The notes under the pieces: generated by a model | Databases searched by the model: none | Told to the model about the DNA's origin: nothing | Seen by the model: the letters and a program-made list of their open reading frames with translations, nothing else | Program-made: the position numbers and the translations under genes | Origin: Candidatus Limiplasma stercoravium | Lineage (GTDB): Bacteria; Bacillota; Clostridia; Christensenellales; Aristaeellaceae | Assembly (NCBI GenBank): GCA_018715175.1 | Contig: DVME01000102.1 | Span: 69 to 64,068 of the forward strand | DNA length: 64,000 nt | Direction: 5' to 3' | Shown here: in pieces, positions 3,013 through 36,705 of the stretch | Numbering within the stretch: the first letter of the stretch is position 1 | How the letters are laid out: each line of letters begins with the position of its first letter

Positions 3013-3021
3013 TGGTATAAT
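3013..3021 (+). promoter_or_regulatory. Extended -10 element (TGGTATAAT) upstream of the mini-NrdD ORF
   Basis: TGGTATAAT lies 36 nt upstream of the ATG at 3057. There is no convincing -35, which is consistent with an extended -10 promoter. Confidence 0.4.
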
Positions 3022-3028
3022 CGTCTTG

Positions 3029-3043
3029 CACAACATCTAGTGG
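3029..3043 (+). promoter_or_regulatory. Candidate NrdR-box-like imperfect palindrome
   Basis: CACAACATCTAGTGG sits just downstream of the -10. It matches about 11 of 15 positions of the NrdR box consensus as I recall it (ACACAATATATTGTGT). Only one copy is seen. Confidence 0.25.
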
Positions 3044-3056
3044 GAAAACCCTGCGC

Positions 3057-3344
3057 ATGAAAGGATGGTATACCATGGCTTGTACGATTACGGTAAAGAA
3101 TGGCACGCTTGAAAACGGCGAGGCGGAAGCCTATATCGCCCGTGCAATCGAAAAATTTGGCGTCGAACCCCGGCATATTGATATTACCGTTCAGGGGGAC
3201 GAGGTAGACCTGGATTACGATTTGGGCGCGCGGGATTTTCAGCGCATCCGCCGTATCACGGGCTATCTGGTGGGCACGCTGGATCGTTTCAACAATGCCA
3301 AACGCGCCGAGGAGCACGACCGCGTCAAACACGGCGTCTGCTGA
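3057..3344 (+). CDS. Stand-alone NrdD-type glycyl-radical domain protein (95 aa; the start may instead be ATG 3075)
   Basis: The C-terminus FQRIRRITGYLVGTLDRFNNAKRAEEHDRVKHGV matches the C-terminal glycyl-radical loop of class III RNR NrdD (R..GYL ... FN.(G/A)K..E...RVKH). It has no catalytic barrel, ATP-cone or CxxC Zn-ribbon. It has its own promoter-like element. Confidence 0.7.
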   Translation: MKGWYTMACTITVKNGTLENGEAEAYIARAIEKFGVEPRHIDITVQGDEVDLDYDLGARDFQRIRRITGYLVGTLDRFNNAKRAEEHDRVKHGVC

Positions 3345-3352
3345 AAAAAGGC

Positions 3353-3381
3353 TTGTCAAGGCGCGAAAATGCGCGTATAAT
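3353..3381 (+). promoter_or_regulatory. Sigma-A type promoter for the serS leader (TTGTCA-17-TATAAT)
   Basis: TTGTCA at 3353..3358 and TATAAT at 3376..3381, with a 17-nt spacer. Confidence 0.6.
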
Positions 3382-3387
3382 ACCGCC

Positions 3388-3616
3388 ATGGCCTTGACCG
3401 TGATCCTGGCCGCCCCAACCGTTCATCAGAGAGCAGCCGTCCGGTGCAAGGCTGCGGCGGCGGCGGCCGTTCCGTCACGTGAGCCTCGCGGCGACGAGCC
3501 GCGCGGGAGCGCCCGATATCGTGCAAAAAAGCGAAGGCGCAAGCCTTAAGCCGGGTGGCACCGCGGAGAACGCTTCCTCCGTCCCTGCAGCGTGAAAGCC
3601 GTAGGGACGTTTTCTA
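3388..3616 (+). promoter_or_regulatory. T-box leader (tRNA-sensing riboswitch) controlling serS
   Basis: AGAGAG box at 3428..3433. T-box core GGGTGGCACCGCGG at 3553..3566. This is followed by a terminator hairpin (CGTCCCTGC 3580..3588 pairs with GTAGGGACG 3601..3609) and TTTTT at 3610..3614, directly upstream of serS. I did not assign a specifier codon. Confidence 0.75.
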
Positions 3617-3650: not shown

Positions 3651-4922
3651 ATGCTTGACATCAAACGAATCCGGCAAAATCCGCAGGAGCTCACAGACGC
3701 GCTCAAAGCGCGGCACAAGGATATTGACGTAGCGCCCTTCCTGGAGGCGGACGAAAACCGCCGTAAACTCATGGCCCAGGCCGAGGAAAAACGCGCGCTG
3801 CGCCGCGCCACCAGCAAGGACATCAGCGTGGCCAAGAAAAACGGCGTCCCCGAGTCGGAAGTTGCCGGCATCATGGACGCCATGCGCCGCTTGGGGGACG
3901 AAATTGACGAGCTGGAGGCCCAGGCCCAACGCCTGGAAGCCCAGATGAACGACTTTTTGCTCACCGTGCCCAACCTGCCGCATGCCAGCGTGCCCGTAGG
4001 CGCGGACGACCATGACAACGTGGAAGTCCGCCGCTGGGGGACGCCGCGCGCCTTTGCCTGGGAGCCCAAGGCGCATTGGGACATCGGCGCGGATTTGGGC
4101 ATCCTGGACTTTGCTACTGCCGCCAAAGTCAGCGGCGCGCGCTTCACCTTCTATCGGGGGCTGGGAGCGCGGCTGGAGCGCGCCATCATCAACTTCTTCC
4201 TCAACACCCATGTGCAAAACGGCTACGACGAAGTCTATCCCCCCTACATGGTCACCCGCGCCGCCATGACCGGCACCGGCCAGCTGCCCAAGTTTGAGGA
4301 AGACGCTTACAAGGTGGATGCGGACACCTTCCTGATTCCCACGGCCGAGGTGCCCGTCACCAACATGTACCGCGAAATGATCCTGGACGGCGCCAAGCTG
4401 CCCATCCGCCATTGCGCCTATTCCACCTGTTTCCGCGCCGAGGCCGGCAGCGCCGGGCGCGATACGCGCGGGCTGATCCGCCAGCACCAGTTCAACAAGG
4501 TAGAAATGGTAAAAATCACCAAGCCCGAACAAAGCTACGACGAGCTGGAAAGCATGACCGCCGAGGCCGAAAAGGTGCTTCAGCTCCTGGGCCTGCCCTA
4601 CCGGGTGGTCACGCTGTGCACCGGCGACATGGGCTTTAGCGCCGCCAAGACCTACGACGTGGAGGTGTGGATGCCCAGCTACGGCCGGTATGTGGAGATT
4701 TCCAGCTGTTCCAACTGCGAGGATTTCCAGGCCCGGCGCGCAGGCATCCGCTATCGGGAATCCCCCAAGGACAAGCCCTGCTTTGCCCACACCCTTAACG
4801 GCAGCGGCGTGGCCGTGGGACGAACCGTGGCGGCCATCCTGGAAAACTATCAAAACGAGGACGGCAGCGTAACCATCCCCGAAGCTCTCGTTCCCTACAT
4901 GGGTACCAATCGTATCGGCTAA
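3651..4922 (+). CDS. serS: Seryl-tRNA synthetase
   Basis: Starts [14 protein letters not shown] after the RBS AAAGGAGG. Class II aaRS blocks are present: [25 protein letters not shown] and [18 protein letters not shown]. The longer ORF from 3555 overlaps the T-box leader, so I rejected it. Confidence 0.95.
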
Positions 4923-6757
4923 GGTTTCCGGCGCTGGGCGCGGCCTGATGACGGGCCGCGCCTTTTGGTTTCCTGCCGCGGCCGAACCAGGCATTTGGGC
5001 CCGTAGCCGATCAGATCGCCACGGCCGCACCGCTGCAGCGCCTCGCGCACCAAGTCGTGGTTGGCGGGGTTTCGATACTGCAAAAGGGCGCGCTGCATGG
5101 CTTTTTCATGCGGCGATTTGGGCACGTAAACGGGGCTCATGTCCCGCGGATCCAATCCGGTATGGTACATGCAGGTGCTGAGCGTGCCGGGCGTGGGATA
5201 AAAATCCTGCACCTGTTGGGGCTGATGTCCGGTGTCGCGCAAGTATTCGGCCAGCGCAACCGCGTCGGACAAGGTGCTTCCCGGGTGGCTGCTCATTAGG
5301 TAGGGCACCAGGTATTGTTTAAGCCCCAGGCGGCGGTTGAGCGATTCGTATTTGCGCACAAAGGCGTCGTAAACCTCGCGGGGCGGCTTGCCCATGCGAC
5401 AGAGCACCGCAGGGCTAATGTGTTCGGGCGCGACCTTGAGCTGGCCGCTGACATGGTAGCGGCACAAATCGCGCAGAAAAGCGTCGCTGGAATCCGCCAT
5501 CAGGTAGTCGAAGCGAATGCCGGAGCGGATGAACACCTTTTTTACGCCAGGCAGAGCGCGCAGGCGGGCCAAAAGCCGGCACAGCTCCTCATGGCTGACC
5601 TTCAAATGCGGACAGGGCGTAGGATACAGGCATTGCCGCTTGCGGCAGGCGCCCTCGCGCAGCTGGCGGTCGCAGGCTGGCGCGCGAAAATTGGCCGTGG
5701 GGCCGCCCACGTCGTGGATGTATCCTTTGAAGTCCTCTAGCCGCGTCAGCGCCTTGGCCTCAGCCACCAGCGAATCCTCGCTGCGCGAGGTTACGATGCG
5801 CCCCTGGTGAAACGTCAGCGCGCAAAAGCTGCACGCGCCAAAGCATCCTCGCACCGCGCTGAGGGAAAAACGCACCTCCGAAAGCGCCGGCACGCCGCCC
5901 TCGGCGTCGTACATGGGATGAGCGCGCCGGGTATAGGGCAGGGCGTAAACGGCGTCCAGCTCTTCGCGGCTTAAGGGCATCGCAGGCGGATTCTGTACCA
6001 GATAGCGTTTGTCGTCCTGCTTTTGGCACAAGCGGCGGCCGCGCACGGGATCCTGTTCCTCGTATTCCAGGGCAAAGGCGCGCGCATAGGCTCGCTTGTC
6101 CGAAGCCACCTGCGCGTGATCGGGTACAAGCACGGCGTCGGACGGCGGCTCCTTGGCCATGTAGCACACCCCGCGCAGCGACGCAAGCTCCTGCGCCGGT
6201 TGGCCGCGGCGCACCCAGTCGCAGCACTCCAGGATGCTCCTTTCCCCCATGCCGTACATCAACAGCGTGGCCGCGCTGTCCACCAGCACGCTGCGGCGCA
6301 CCTTATCGTCCCAATAATCATAGTGAGAAAACCGCCTCAGCGACGCCTCCAGCCCGCCGATGAGCACCGGAGTGCCCGGATATGCCTCATGAATGCGGTT
6401 ACAGTACACCGTGACCGCCCGATCCGGCCGAAGCCCCGCCTGTCCGCCGGGCGCGTAGGCGTCGGTATGGCGGCGCTTTTTGGCGACGGTATAGTGGTTG
6501 ACCATGCTGTCGATTACGCCGGACGTCACCAAAAAACCAAGCTTTGGCCTACCGAAGCGCTTGAACGCCTCAGCGCTGTGGTACGGGGGCAGGCACAGCA
6601 TGGCCACGCGATAGCCGGCGTTTTCCAGCACGCGGCTGATGATGGCGTGGCCAAAGGACGGATGATCCACATACGCCTCCCCCACCACATAGACAAAATC
6701 GGGCGCATCCCATCCCCGTGCGGCGACGTCTGCCTGGCTGACCGGCAAAAAATCCAT
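4919..6757 (-). CDS. ygiQ: YgiQ-family (UPF0313) radical SAM protein
   Basis: Starts [17 protein letters not shown] after a GGAGG RBS. CX3CX2C motif within [12 protein letters not shown]-terminal block [23 protein letters not shown] is typical of YgiQ. Confidence 0.85.
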
Positions 6758-6909
6758 GAAGCACCTCCGCTTTCGCTTTGCAACAGTATACCACAAACCG
6801 CCGCCGGGCGCCGCGCCGCGCGCGGATTTTTTTGTCTTGGGAAGAAACGCCATCCCAGGATCGTTCTATGGTCAACTCGCCGTTTGGCGAAATGAGGAGG
6901 ATGGAGCCG

Positions 6910-35286: not shown

Positions 35287-36705
35287 ATGCCCGTGCCGAG
35301 GACTTTTGCGCAATGTCTGACTTCTCTGATGCAGGAGCGCCAGCTGACGGCTTCAGCCCTGGGCGCGCGTATCGGCATGCGCGCCGATCTTCGCCGCGTG
35401 CTGGAGGACGAGGCCACGCCGTCCCGTCAGGCGGCGGTTTTTCGCCGTTTGTGCGAAGGCGCGTTCTTTAGCGAGGCGCAACAGCAGCAGCTGCGAAACG
35501 CGCTCGAGGTCAGCCGCATGGGAATCGACCGCTACCTTACCTTTACTTCCATGGACAAGCTGCTGGGCTTTGCGCCAATGGACGCGCATGCCGAACCGAG
35601 GGTTCTGGGCGGCGAGGCCCTCAGCCGATACTTTGAAACCTGGGTTCAATCGGACTGCCTGGACATTATCCTGATTAACGGCTGCCATCCGGCGCTGCTG
35701 GGCGCCTTGGCCACGCTTTTTTCGGATCGCAACCGTCCCATGCGCATGGATCATTACGTACAGCTGGACAAACCGGGCAACGATCCCGCCAGCTTTTTGC
35801 TATCGGCCGCGCCCATGCTCTTTGATCCGCGCTACACCCCCTACGGCGTCCACGCTTCCATCGCTAACCAGCATGAGATTACGGGGCATTTTTTGCTGGT
35901 TCGCGCCGTGCGCGGGGATCGCGCGCGGCAATGGTTTTTTTTGATCAATGCGGACGCGACGGCTTACGAGCTCGCCAACGCCGGGCGCGTGGACATTTTC
36001 GCCTTCGTCCAGCGCATTCTGGGCGATCTCACGCCCAGCCCCTTGATGCTCAAGGAATTCCAATCCGGGAAGCCGGACTATCTATCCTTCCTGATGCAAT
36101 GCCTCCGCCGCGAGCTCAACCGCTCCACGTACAGCTTGTCTTCCAACCTCTGCCTGTGCAAGACGCCTACGGACATCCTGCTCAACAGCTTTTGCGAAGG
36201 CGGGGTCATGCCGTCCCAGGACGTGGAAAAAATGATCAACAAAGCGCTGCCGGTATTCAAAAAGCGCTATTACAATTGGTTTCACCGCTCCAAACCGGTT
36301 TACGACATCTTTACCAGCCAGGGCGTTGACACGCTGATGGAAACCGGTTGCCTTTGCGATCACTTTTTCGCCATGCGGCCCTTTACGCCTGCTGAACGGC
36401 TGGAAATCCTGCGCCAACAGCTGCTTTTCGCCCAGGCGAACCCGCGCTATGACATGCGTATGCTCAAGCGGGAATACTCGCCGCGCTTTCTGTTTGTCTG
36501 CTATGAAAACCTTTGCGTCTCGCTGGTTCCTAGCAGCGTGGACTATAACCTGACAAACGGTTACGATCAGGTGACGTTCAGCATGCCCGGCTTTGTCCGC
36601 TTGCTGCGGGAATACTTTTTGGAGGTGCTTGTGCCCAATTATTGCCACACAAGGGAAGCCTCTTTGGAATATTTGAGGCAGGCGCTGGCGCGGTACGGGG
36701 GCTAG
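35287..36705 (+). CDS. Uncharacterised ~470-aa XRE-HTH protein (paralog C)
   Basis: 472 aa. N-terminus FAQCLTSLMQERQLTASALGARIGMRADLRRVLEDE. Collinear with ORFs 135..1565 and 1584..2984. Confidence 0.7.
   Translation: MPVPRTFAQCLTSLMQERQLTASALGARIGMRADLRRVLEDEATPSRQAAVFRRLCEGAFFSEAQQQQLRNALEVSRMGIDRYLTFTSMDKLLGFAPMDAHAEPRVLGGEALSRYFETWVQSDCLDIILINGCHPALLGALATLFSDRNRPMRMDHYVQLDKPGNDPASFLLSAAPMLFDPRYTPYGVHASIANQHEITGHFLLVRAVRGDRARQWFFLINADATAYELANAGRVDIFAFVQRILGDLTPSPLMLKEFQSGKPDYLSFLMQCLRRELNRSTYSLSSNLCLCKTPTDILLNSFCEGGVMPSQDVEKMINKALPVFKKRYYNWFHRSKPVYDIFTSQGVDTLMETGCLCDHFFAMRPFTPAERLEILRQQLLFAQANPRYDMRMLKREYSPRFLFVCYENLCVSLVPSSVDYNLTNGYDQVTFSMPGFVRLLREYFLEVLVPNYCHTREASLEYLRQALARYGG

Follow-up and report, generated by a model that had tools for sequence, protein, structure and literature searches.

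A small stand-alone protein as a candidate trans-acting glycyl-radical module for class III ribonucleotide reductase in Candidatus Limiplasma stercoravium and related anaerobes

The 64,000-nucleotide stretch of Candidatus Limiplasma stercoravium DNA analyzed here (assembly GCA_018715175.1, contig DVME01000102.1, positions 69 to 64,068; hereafter the window) carries a small plus-strand gene whose product ends like NrdD, the class III ribonucleotide reductase (RNR) of anaerobes. In the list of open reading frames (ORFs) and in the sequence, it appears as an ORF of 95 amino acids (aa) at 3057..3344 that ends in ...FQRIRRITGYLVGTLDRFNNAKRAEEHDRVKHGVC, and an initial annotation, made from the letters alone, had taken it at that length. 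The ORF is real and its end stands, but its start is probably at 3075. Homologs of 88-90 aa start with MAC(T/S)V and span 93% of the 95-aa query, and a conserved ribosome-binding site (RBS; AAAGGA, 3060..3065) serves an ATG at 3075, 9 nucleotides (nt) downstream of it. Because of this, we prefer a coding sequence at 3075..3344 (stop included), and the alignments make an 89-aa product most likely. The N-terminal extension MKGWYT of the longer ORF is specific to the window, while GAAAGGA upstream of the MAC start is kept in two relatives, L001 and L013. The annotation had also given the gene its own extended -10 element and RBS, and both are present. The -10 element was read from the sequence at 3013..3021 (TGGTATAAT), and its position is kept in L001 (TGGTAGAAT) and L013 (TGGTATACT). 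A consensus promoter scan did not list it because a good -35 element is absent. We refer to this gene as the mini gene and to its product as the mini protein. The identical 89-aa product also occurs on human-gut metagenome contigs (104 index blocks listing them, 23 of which were read), all of them shorter than 50 kb.

The C-terminal part of the mini protein, residues 55-89 (FQRIRRITGYLVGTLDRFNNAKRAEEHDRVKHGVC, encoded at 3237..3341), was assigned as a glycyl-radical loop and tail from NrdD profile and structure alignments. The Pfam NRDD profile (PF13597) matched the 95-aa ORF with 30.1 bits (gathering cut-off 26.2; E = 2.6e-7), and the match was confined to residues 60-92, which correspond to profile positions 531-562 of 562. 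Three NCBIfam NrdD models gave E values from 1e-12 to 4e-8 over their last ~35 positions only; among NrdD models, TIGR02487 was matched at positions 547-581 of 581 with 32 bits against a cut-off of 326. The best solved structure was the NrdD of Prevotella copri (8p23), aligned at residues 702-738 with an E value of 2.6e-7. In that enzyme, Gly711, beside the finger-loop residue Cys416, carries the radical, followed by Tyr712, Arg719, and a helix at 723-730, and the tail packs on the barrel and the NxN flap, which is contacted by the arginine (PMC11226230). Window residues G63, Y64, and R71 and a predicted helix at 74-81 correspond to these elements, so that the GGC codon at 3261..3263, aligned to the radical glycine of 8p23, encodes the predicted radical-bearing residue, Gly63. 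Neither a barrel nor an ATP-cone was detected by Pfam or NCBIfam, which match the tail alone, and the 89 aa contain no CxxC pairs that could form a structural Zn site. The Pfam Gly_radical family (PF01228) gave no match at E<=1, leaving NRDD as the sole significant family, and no dedicated family for the mini protein exists in Pfam, NCBIfam, or PHROGs, where NrdD-tail matches were the only ones.

Ahead of this loop lies a separate small domain (residues 1-54, 3075..3236), delimited by alignment and by an AlphaFold2 (AF2) model. With a diverse alignment of 67 sequences, AF2 predicted the fold beta(4-8)-alpha(14-28)-beta(34-40)-beta(43-49), and residues 1-50 were modeled confidently, with a predicted local distance difference test (pLDDT) score of 85-92. 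Within this domain, E16 and Y20 are near-invariant across the family, a GD turn is found in the majority of members, and G41 is invariant among close homologs. The beta-hairpin with the GD turn stands where NrdD has its structural Zn site and, by our reading of the sequences, is separated from the glycine loop by about as many residues as the Zn ribbon's second CPxCG knuckle. Because of this resemblance in spacing, we speculate that, structurally, the N-terminal domain takes over from the Zn ribbon and could pair with the ...RIVIPR or ...ERIRRI strand that truncated NrdDs retain. No structural neighbors were found in the PDB at E<=0.001 using Foldseek with two models, and no Pfam, NCBIfam, or PHROG family covers the N-terminal residues. 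Weak matches to YfiA/HPF-like proteins and to tRNA endonucleases were rejected as generic alpha/beta similarity. We also considered a fused ancestor, in which the domain would sit between the Zn ribbon and the glycine loop of a full-length NrdD, but no fused form was seen. In long NrdDs (821-864 aa), the spacing from CPxCG to RRITGY is a normal 18-20 residues (22 in one), and the extra length lies elsewhere.

Relatives of the mini protein are numerous and conserved. A search of 5.8 billion proteins returned thousands of homologs of ~89 aa with 68-98% identity from metagenome-assembled genomes of Clostridia/Eubacteriales, named in their sources as either "anaerobic ribonucleoside-triphosphate reductase" or "hypothetical." A profile seeded by the window protein, run against 1.84 billion cluster representatives (50% identity), gave 2,414 matches at E<=1e-3 and 1,349 at E<=1e-10. 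The best 150 of these are all small (52-236 aa, mostly 84-125 aa), and members align over positions 1-88. Relatives of the mini gene occur in at least 598 species-level genomes, including those of Christensenellales, Oscillospiraceae, Ruminococcus (R. flavefaciens FD-1 among them), Lachnospiraceae, Erysipelotrichaceae, Eggerthellaceae, and Selenomonadales. Across 67 diverse members, R59, R60, T62, G63, Y64, G67, K76, E79, R83, and H86 are invariant, and E16, Y20, and F55 are among those that are nearly so. The ratio of nonsynonymous to synonymous substitution rates (dN/dS) of the gene is 0.11-0.13 against two relatives and 0.12-0.16 in the N-terminal domain, indicating purifying selection on both halves. 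We define the family as proteins of ~85-125 aa with a beta-alpha-beta-beta domain followed by F-x-R-I-R-R-I-T-G-Y-L-V-G...D-R-V-K-H; the window protein belongs to it by its alignments and its structure model. The mini proteins thus make up a large family that is apparently undescribed.

These results bear out most of what had been proposed from the sequence. The initial annotation had likened the protein to the extreme C-terminus of NrdD, including the radical glycine in a GY context, and the likeness is significant in Pfam, in NCBIfam, and in the 8p23 alignment; the profile search that it had suggested, with NRDD and TIGR02487, recovered the NrdD tail and nothing more. Its remark that the barrel, ATP-cone, and CxxC motifs are lacking agrees with the extent of these matches, and the unrelated small domain that it had described is the one that AF2 folds. 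It had further judged the gene not to be a decayed 3' fragment, and a dN/dS of ~0.1 together with relatives in at least 598 species genomes concurs. Finally, it had held that a glycine not conserved in orthologs, or a strain-unique ORF flanked by nrdD remnants, would speak against the idea; the glycine and its surroundings are invariant in the 67 diverse members, the species count is as given, and no nrdD remnants flank the gene in the window. It had left the choice between a spare part and a split subunit to the genomic context of nrdD, and both arrangements occur within the family, as the operons below show.

In a number of genomes, the mini gene lies between the genes for NrdD and NrdG. The order nrdD-mini-nrdG, in some cases continued by nrdR, was found in loci L061, L070, L077, L083, L094, L098, L099, L182, and L184. 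In L070, nrdD (779 aa, with ATP-cone, NRDD, and Gly_radical domains) is followed by the mini gene (94 aa), nrdG, and nrdR, and this arrangement recurs in L098, L099, L182, and L184, and without nrdR in L094. In L096, which comes from an abundant human-gut Clostridium sp. CAG:1219-like species, one extra ORF separates nrdD from the mini gene. The protein encoded there, between the intact nrdD and the mini gene (L096:5333-5986, plus strand), has 217 aa, a hydrophobic N-terminus, and no Pfam match.

The NrdDs of these operons fall into two kinds, those that keep the glycine motif and those that have lost it. In three Selenomonadales genomes, NrdD ends just past the Zn ribbon (...CPRCGRTEAEHHHHQVIPRIHCGL, followed by the stop) with no glycine motif, and a mini gene with its own RBS follows the truncated nrdD and is followed in turn by nrdG. 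In 118 of the 120 NrdDs closest to that of Megamonas, the motif is missing and a conserved tail of the form ...EHH.R[IV][IV]IPR..C stands in its place; the other two have a canonical tail, which matches that of the Megamonas mini protein at every one of 34 residues. Among 120 homologs of the L070 NrdD, 25 lack the motif and end in ...GFERIRRISCSTC..., ...SERIRRIKSYKV, or ...YERIKRIKCC, that is, at the glycine, and in both of the two whose contexts were read the mini gene is adjacent. The contrast can be seen in loci L093 and L094, which have an upstream MscS gene in common: L093 encodes an intact NrdD followed by NrdG and has no mini gene, whereas L094 (Selenomonas sp. TAMA-11512, complete genome AP029018.1) encodes a truncated NrdD (764 aa), then the mini protein (94 aa), then NrdG. 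In viral contigs, NrdD adjoins a mini gene in 17 of 80 loci; the glycine motif is absent from all 17 of these NrdDs, and nrdG lies downstream in 10. In total, each of the 23 truncated NrdDs whose surroundings were read (6/6 cellular and 17/17 viral) is accompanied by a mini gene, immediately adjacent or within ~1.3 kb. Intact NrdDs can also have one, as in four of the seven intact-NrdD loci examined (L070, L096, L182, and L184, which belong to different subgroups); L093, L097/L180, and L183 have an intact NrdD and no adjacent mini gene. Annotation pipelines label the truncated NrdDs as ordinary reductases.

Where an intact NrdD and a mini protein are neighbors, their 33-residue tails are identical at 31-33 positions, compared with 27-31 for non-cognate pairs, and the cognate tails have lineage-specific variable positions in common. 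One subgroup of truncated NrdDs (P0393-P0397, 772-773 aa, as at L099:3001-5322) has an acidic, low-complexity extension of ~30 residues (...ERIKRIRNYTYKDENKEDKYNLESNELEIKILD) in place of the glycine tail. Because NrdDs of this type are 85-87% identical to an intact NrdD, their tail was lost or replaced recently.

Several further observations concern the ends and variants of these proteins. Many mini proteins end in Cys-rich sequences (ECSCAEF, ECGCCDF, SVCC, CCH, and CCCGE; examples are in L070, L098, L099, L184, and L094 and in P0127, P0129, P0141, P0177, and P0219). Truncated NrdDs often end in Cys motifs too (RISCSTC, IKCC, PRMxC, and GECASLESF), as does the intact L070 NrdD (ECNCD). With these ends, the two polypeptides might jointly build a metal or redox site, or the ends might serve as a tail on which a reductant docks. 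Separately, viral ORFs of 54-69 aa (L160:4923-5129, L164:4893-5102, L167:4935-5141, L174:4462-4647, and L175:4959-5123) consist of a short basic leader (...L[IV]GEGV[KM]) and an NrdD tail (FERIRRITGYLVGT...DRVKHG) with no beta-alpha-beta-beta domain. No NrdD match was found with them in the fetched loci, which extend ~5 kb to either side, and they may represent a second, tail-only class of stand-alone glycyl-radical peptides.

A candidate regulatory site would link the solitary gene of the window to RNR control. NrdR operators consist of two 16-bp boxes separated by a linker of 15-16 bp (PMC13584703). Between the -10 element and the RBS, at 3028..3043 on the plus strand, lies an NrdR-box-like sequence, GCACAACATCTAGTGG, with 12 of 16 matches to ACACWATATATWGTGT. 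Its core, CACWANATNTWGTG (3029-3042), is a perfect palindrome that occurs once in the 64 kb, with 0.00 occurrences expected from shuffled sequences, and the core is kept in the nearest relative, L001 (GCACAATATCTGGTGC). When the 200 nt upstream of mini genes were scanned for tandem boxes with a summed score of >=22 of 32, boxes spaced 31-32 bp apart were found at 38 of 77 loci (49%), compared with 0.5% of shuffles, and each of five other spacings gave fewer (11-19 loci). The preferred spacing matches the published architecture of NrdR sites. We propose that expression of the solitary mini gene is tied to the RNR regulon through a putative NrdR operator over its promoter.

Genes next to the mini gene were considered as possible partners. 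In the window species and its close relatives, serS lies directly downstream; beyond close relatives, this adjacency was seen only in L013 and L020. The gene (about 3651-4922, plus strand, called as an ORF) is preceded by a promoter-like site, TTGTCA-17-TATAAT, found at 3353-3381 on the plus strand by the promoter scan, and by a plus-strand T-box leader at 3385-3589 that matches the Rfam model over its full length (1-219; 54.6 bits, E = 4.5e-11), a score below the Rfam gathering score of 93. Given its own promoter and leader and an adjacency confined to relatives, serS was rejected as a functional partner, and its position is taken as local synteny. Convergent with serS, on the minus strand at 4919-6853, is a gene for a YgiQ-type radical SAM protein (Radical_SAM_N, Radical_SAM, and DUF3362 domains), which among the fetched loci is confined to contigs of the window's own species; it was ruled out as an NrdG-type activase by the absence of a Fer4_12 domain. 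Three plus-strand genes encode paralogs of ~470 aa with 27-28% mutual identity (135-1565, 1584-2984, and 35287-36705). The first two form a tandem immediately 5' of the mini gene, and neither has a Pfam match. In L001, from the more distantly related P0010 species, the tandem is missing and a 138-aa minus-strand gene takes its place. Elsewhere in the family, rubrerythrin is encoded directly downstream of the mini gene in 5 loci and a Crp/Fnr-type regulator beside it in 10, which hints at a link to oxidative stress in some lineages. When all ORFs within 5 kb were clustered in search of other conserved neighbors, the largest cluster (50 loci) proved to be an antisense artifact of the conserved tail and was discarded. 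No nrdD, nrdG, or nrdR was found in the window when its 10 large ORFs were compared with Pfam and all ORFs of >=60 aa were searched by BLAST against NrdD, NrdG, and NrdR seeds.

With the homology of the tail, its conservation, the gene contexts, the complementary presence and absence of the glycine loop, the co-variation of the tails, and the enrichment of NrdR boxes in view, we put the probability that the mini protein serves class III RNR as a trans-acting glycyl-radical module at roughly 80%. In the mechanism that we propose, NrdG would abstract a hydrogen from Gly63, which lies in the RITG-Y loop of the mini protein. Once activated, the loop and tail would enter the alpha/beta barrel of NrdD in place of the enzyme's own C-terminal loop and generate the catalytic thiyl radical there. 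The beta-alpha-beta-beta domain, replacing the Zn-ribbon hairpin ahead of the loop, may present the loop to NrdG, dock on NrdD, or both. The strongest argument comes from the natural truncations, because operons in which the mini protein carries the sole glycine motif would otherwise encode a dead reductase. Oxygen is known to cleave the backbone of glycyl-radical enzymes at the radical glycine (PMC13450708, PMC12288474). Truncated NrdDs end at this same glycine and are kept in conserved operons, and we therefore infer that an NrdD cut at the glycine works together with the mini protein as an enzyme, which is just the assembly that a spare part has to form.

More broadly, it is probable that class III RNR has a widespread, separable second subunit, an autonomous glycyl-radical protein of ~90 aa that is activated by NrdG and plugs into the NrdD barrel. 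Such a protein would act as a spare part in many gut Clostridia and as an obligate radical subunit in Selenomonadaceae, some Clostridia, and many phage-like contigs. In the window genome, we see about an even chance that its role is that of a spare part restoring oxygen-cleaved NrdD, with an obligate subunit and other roles sharing the remainder. The spare-part role is favored since the gene stands alone under its own promoter and an NrdR-type operator, whereas the truncated NrdDs adjoin their mini genes.

Several observations weigh against this interpretation or limit how far it extends. Within 10 kb of the mini gene, nrdD is missing from 76 of 80 genome loci, and the window contains neither nrdD nor nrdG, so that a spare part and an obligate subunit are not distinguished there. 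Loss of the glycine loop was read operon by operon, and genomes with a split system may hold a second, intact nrdD elsewhere. Only one NrdR box in the window is good; its partner, 31 bp upstream, is degenerate, whereas published operators have two. When the mini protein was folded alone by AF2, its tail reached a pLDDT of only 60-70, although a low score would be expected for a loop that needs a partner. Lastly, we infer rather than observe the formation of a radical on the mini protein by NrdG, its binding to NrdD, and the role of its N-terminal domain.

A different arrangement in the window genome would have its NrdD, encoded elsewhere, end at the glycine, leaving the 89-aa protein as the sole radical carrier, essential rather than a backup. 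Split systems are indeed common, as the 118 of 120 Selenomonadaceae NrdDs, the 25 of 120 from Clostridia, and all 17 mini-adjacent viral NrdDs without the motif attest, and strong conservation of the tail and membership in the NrdR regulon would suit an essential subunit. In every one of the 23 truncated cases, however, the mini gene adjoins nrdD or lies within ~1.3 kb of it, whereas here it stands alone beside serS with its own promoter, as it likewise does in the 19 closest genome relatives among the matches listed. It is also frequent for an intact NrdD to have a mini gene beside it (4/7 intact-NrdD loci). We therefore regard an obligate split subunit in this genome as possible but rather unlikely.

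It would be more surprising still if the mini protein were a regulator, either a substrate mimic competing with NrdD for NrdG or a radical buffer that tunes RNR activation. It carries the full loop recognized by NrdG, in operons with an intact NrdD its gene stands between those for NrdD and NrdG, and its expression appears to be co-repressed with the RNR genes by NrdR, all of which would favor a decoy. A decoy would leave the truncated NrdDs, conserved with the mini gene and nrdG, as dead enzymes lacking any glycine motif. Moreover, the co-variation spans the whole 33-residue tail, including the part that packs on the barrel and NxN flap in the P. copri enzyme, which argues for selection on fit with the barrel and not with NrdG alone; we consider such a regulator improbable. 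Matters are simpler for a decaying 3' remnant of nrdD or a chance ORF or annotation artifact in GC-rich DNA. The match to NrdD is limited to the last ~35 residues, NCBI names the homologs "anaerobic ribonucleoside-triphosphate reductase" or "hypothetical," and GC-rich DNA yields many spurious ORFs. The dN/dS of 0.11-0.13 in both domains, the thousands of length-conserved homologs with a common N-terminal domain that folds confidently, and a promoter, RBS, and operator of the gene's own with no nrdD remnants at its flanks say otherwise, and the conservation data have already refuted a remnant or artifact.

The trans-acting module that we favor has its closest precedent in the Escherichia coli protein GrcA/YfiD and the phage T4 protein Y06I, autonomous glycyl-radical cofactors by which oxygen-cleaved pyruvate formate-lyase (PFL) is repaired; the PFL activase activates YfiD, which takes the place of the damaged loop in trans (PMC13450708, PMC8683613). 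Like GrcA/YfiD, the mini protein is a small stand-alone copy of the C-terminal glycyl-radical loop of a large enzyme, and the large enzyme keeps its own loop in L070, L096, L182, and L184, a likeness at the level of the family. Half of the protein is not radical loop, as in YfiD, and viral contigs carry copies, as T4 carries Y06I. The mini protein is not a member of the GrcA family, however: its loop is of the NrdD type (RITGY, Pfam NRDD) with no PF01228 match, and its presumed partner is a class III RNR with NrdG. YfiD is disordered in its N-terminal half, whereas that of the mini protein is predicted to fold as beta-alpha-beta-beta. In many lineages, NrdD has lost its own loop and the mini protein appears obligatory, a situation for which we found no reported PFL/GrcA counterpart. 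Any likeness in action would be one between characterized proteins and a protein known here from its sequence.

Compared with NrdD itself (P. copri 8p23, T4 1H79), the mini protein has the last ~35 residues with the radical glycine, the tyrosine, the arginine of the NxN-flap contact, and the short helix and tail, but not the ATP-cone, the ten-stranded barrel with its Cys loop, or the structural Zn site; because these are missing, it is no reductase on its own. Split RNRs, in which two genes encode parts of one catalytic polypeptide and their products function jointly, offer a second comparison. The class II enzyme is divided into NrdJa and NrdJb in Pseudomonas aeruginosa and a Thermus phage, the class Ia enzyme into NrdA-a and NrdA-b in Aeromonas phage Aeh1, and phage nrdD genes can be interrupted by introns, inteins, or homing endonucleases (PMC9669993, PMC3653736). 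A truncated NrdD with a mini protein is likewise a catalytic RNR polypeptide encoded in two genes. Unlike in those systems, it is precisely at the radical glycine that the break falls, a new N-terminal domain has been added to the small piece, and the mini gene also exists as an extra copy beside an intact NrdD or as a solitary gene. No introns, inteins, or endonucleases were noticed at the nrdD-mini junctions that were read. Neither a class III enzyme split at the radical glycine nor a spare part for NrdD was found in the literature searched, which was mostly without subscription journals. The initial annotation had known of no characterized equivalent for NrdD, in accord with a review of June 2026 in which no spare part is known outside PFL (PMC13450708).

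If it acts as proposed, the module would be the first spare-part protein beyond PFL among glycyl-radical enzymes, present in many gut Clostridia, where repair of oxygen-cleaved NrdD would stand under NrdR control, and class III RNR would be a two-polypeptide enzyme in Selenomonadaceae, some Clostridia, and many phage-like contigs. Natural truncations stop at the very glycine at which glycyl-radical enzymes are reported to be cut by oxygen; the rescue experiment has, in effect, already been run by evolution. Surveys that trust the current annotations of mini proteins and truncated NrdDs could misjudge them. The question, posed in print in 2026, is directly testable, both in the cultured Selenomonas sp. 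TAMA-11512 (AP029018.1), which has a split system, and in abundant human-gut species in which an intact nrdD and a mini gene share an operon. For the enzyme by which anaerobes make DNA precursors, the mini family offers a concrete and abundant spare-part candidate, and it would explain how strict anaerobes of the gut and rumen, and their phages, keep or recover the synthesis of deoxynucleoside triphosphates after transient exposure to oxygen.

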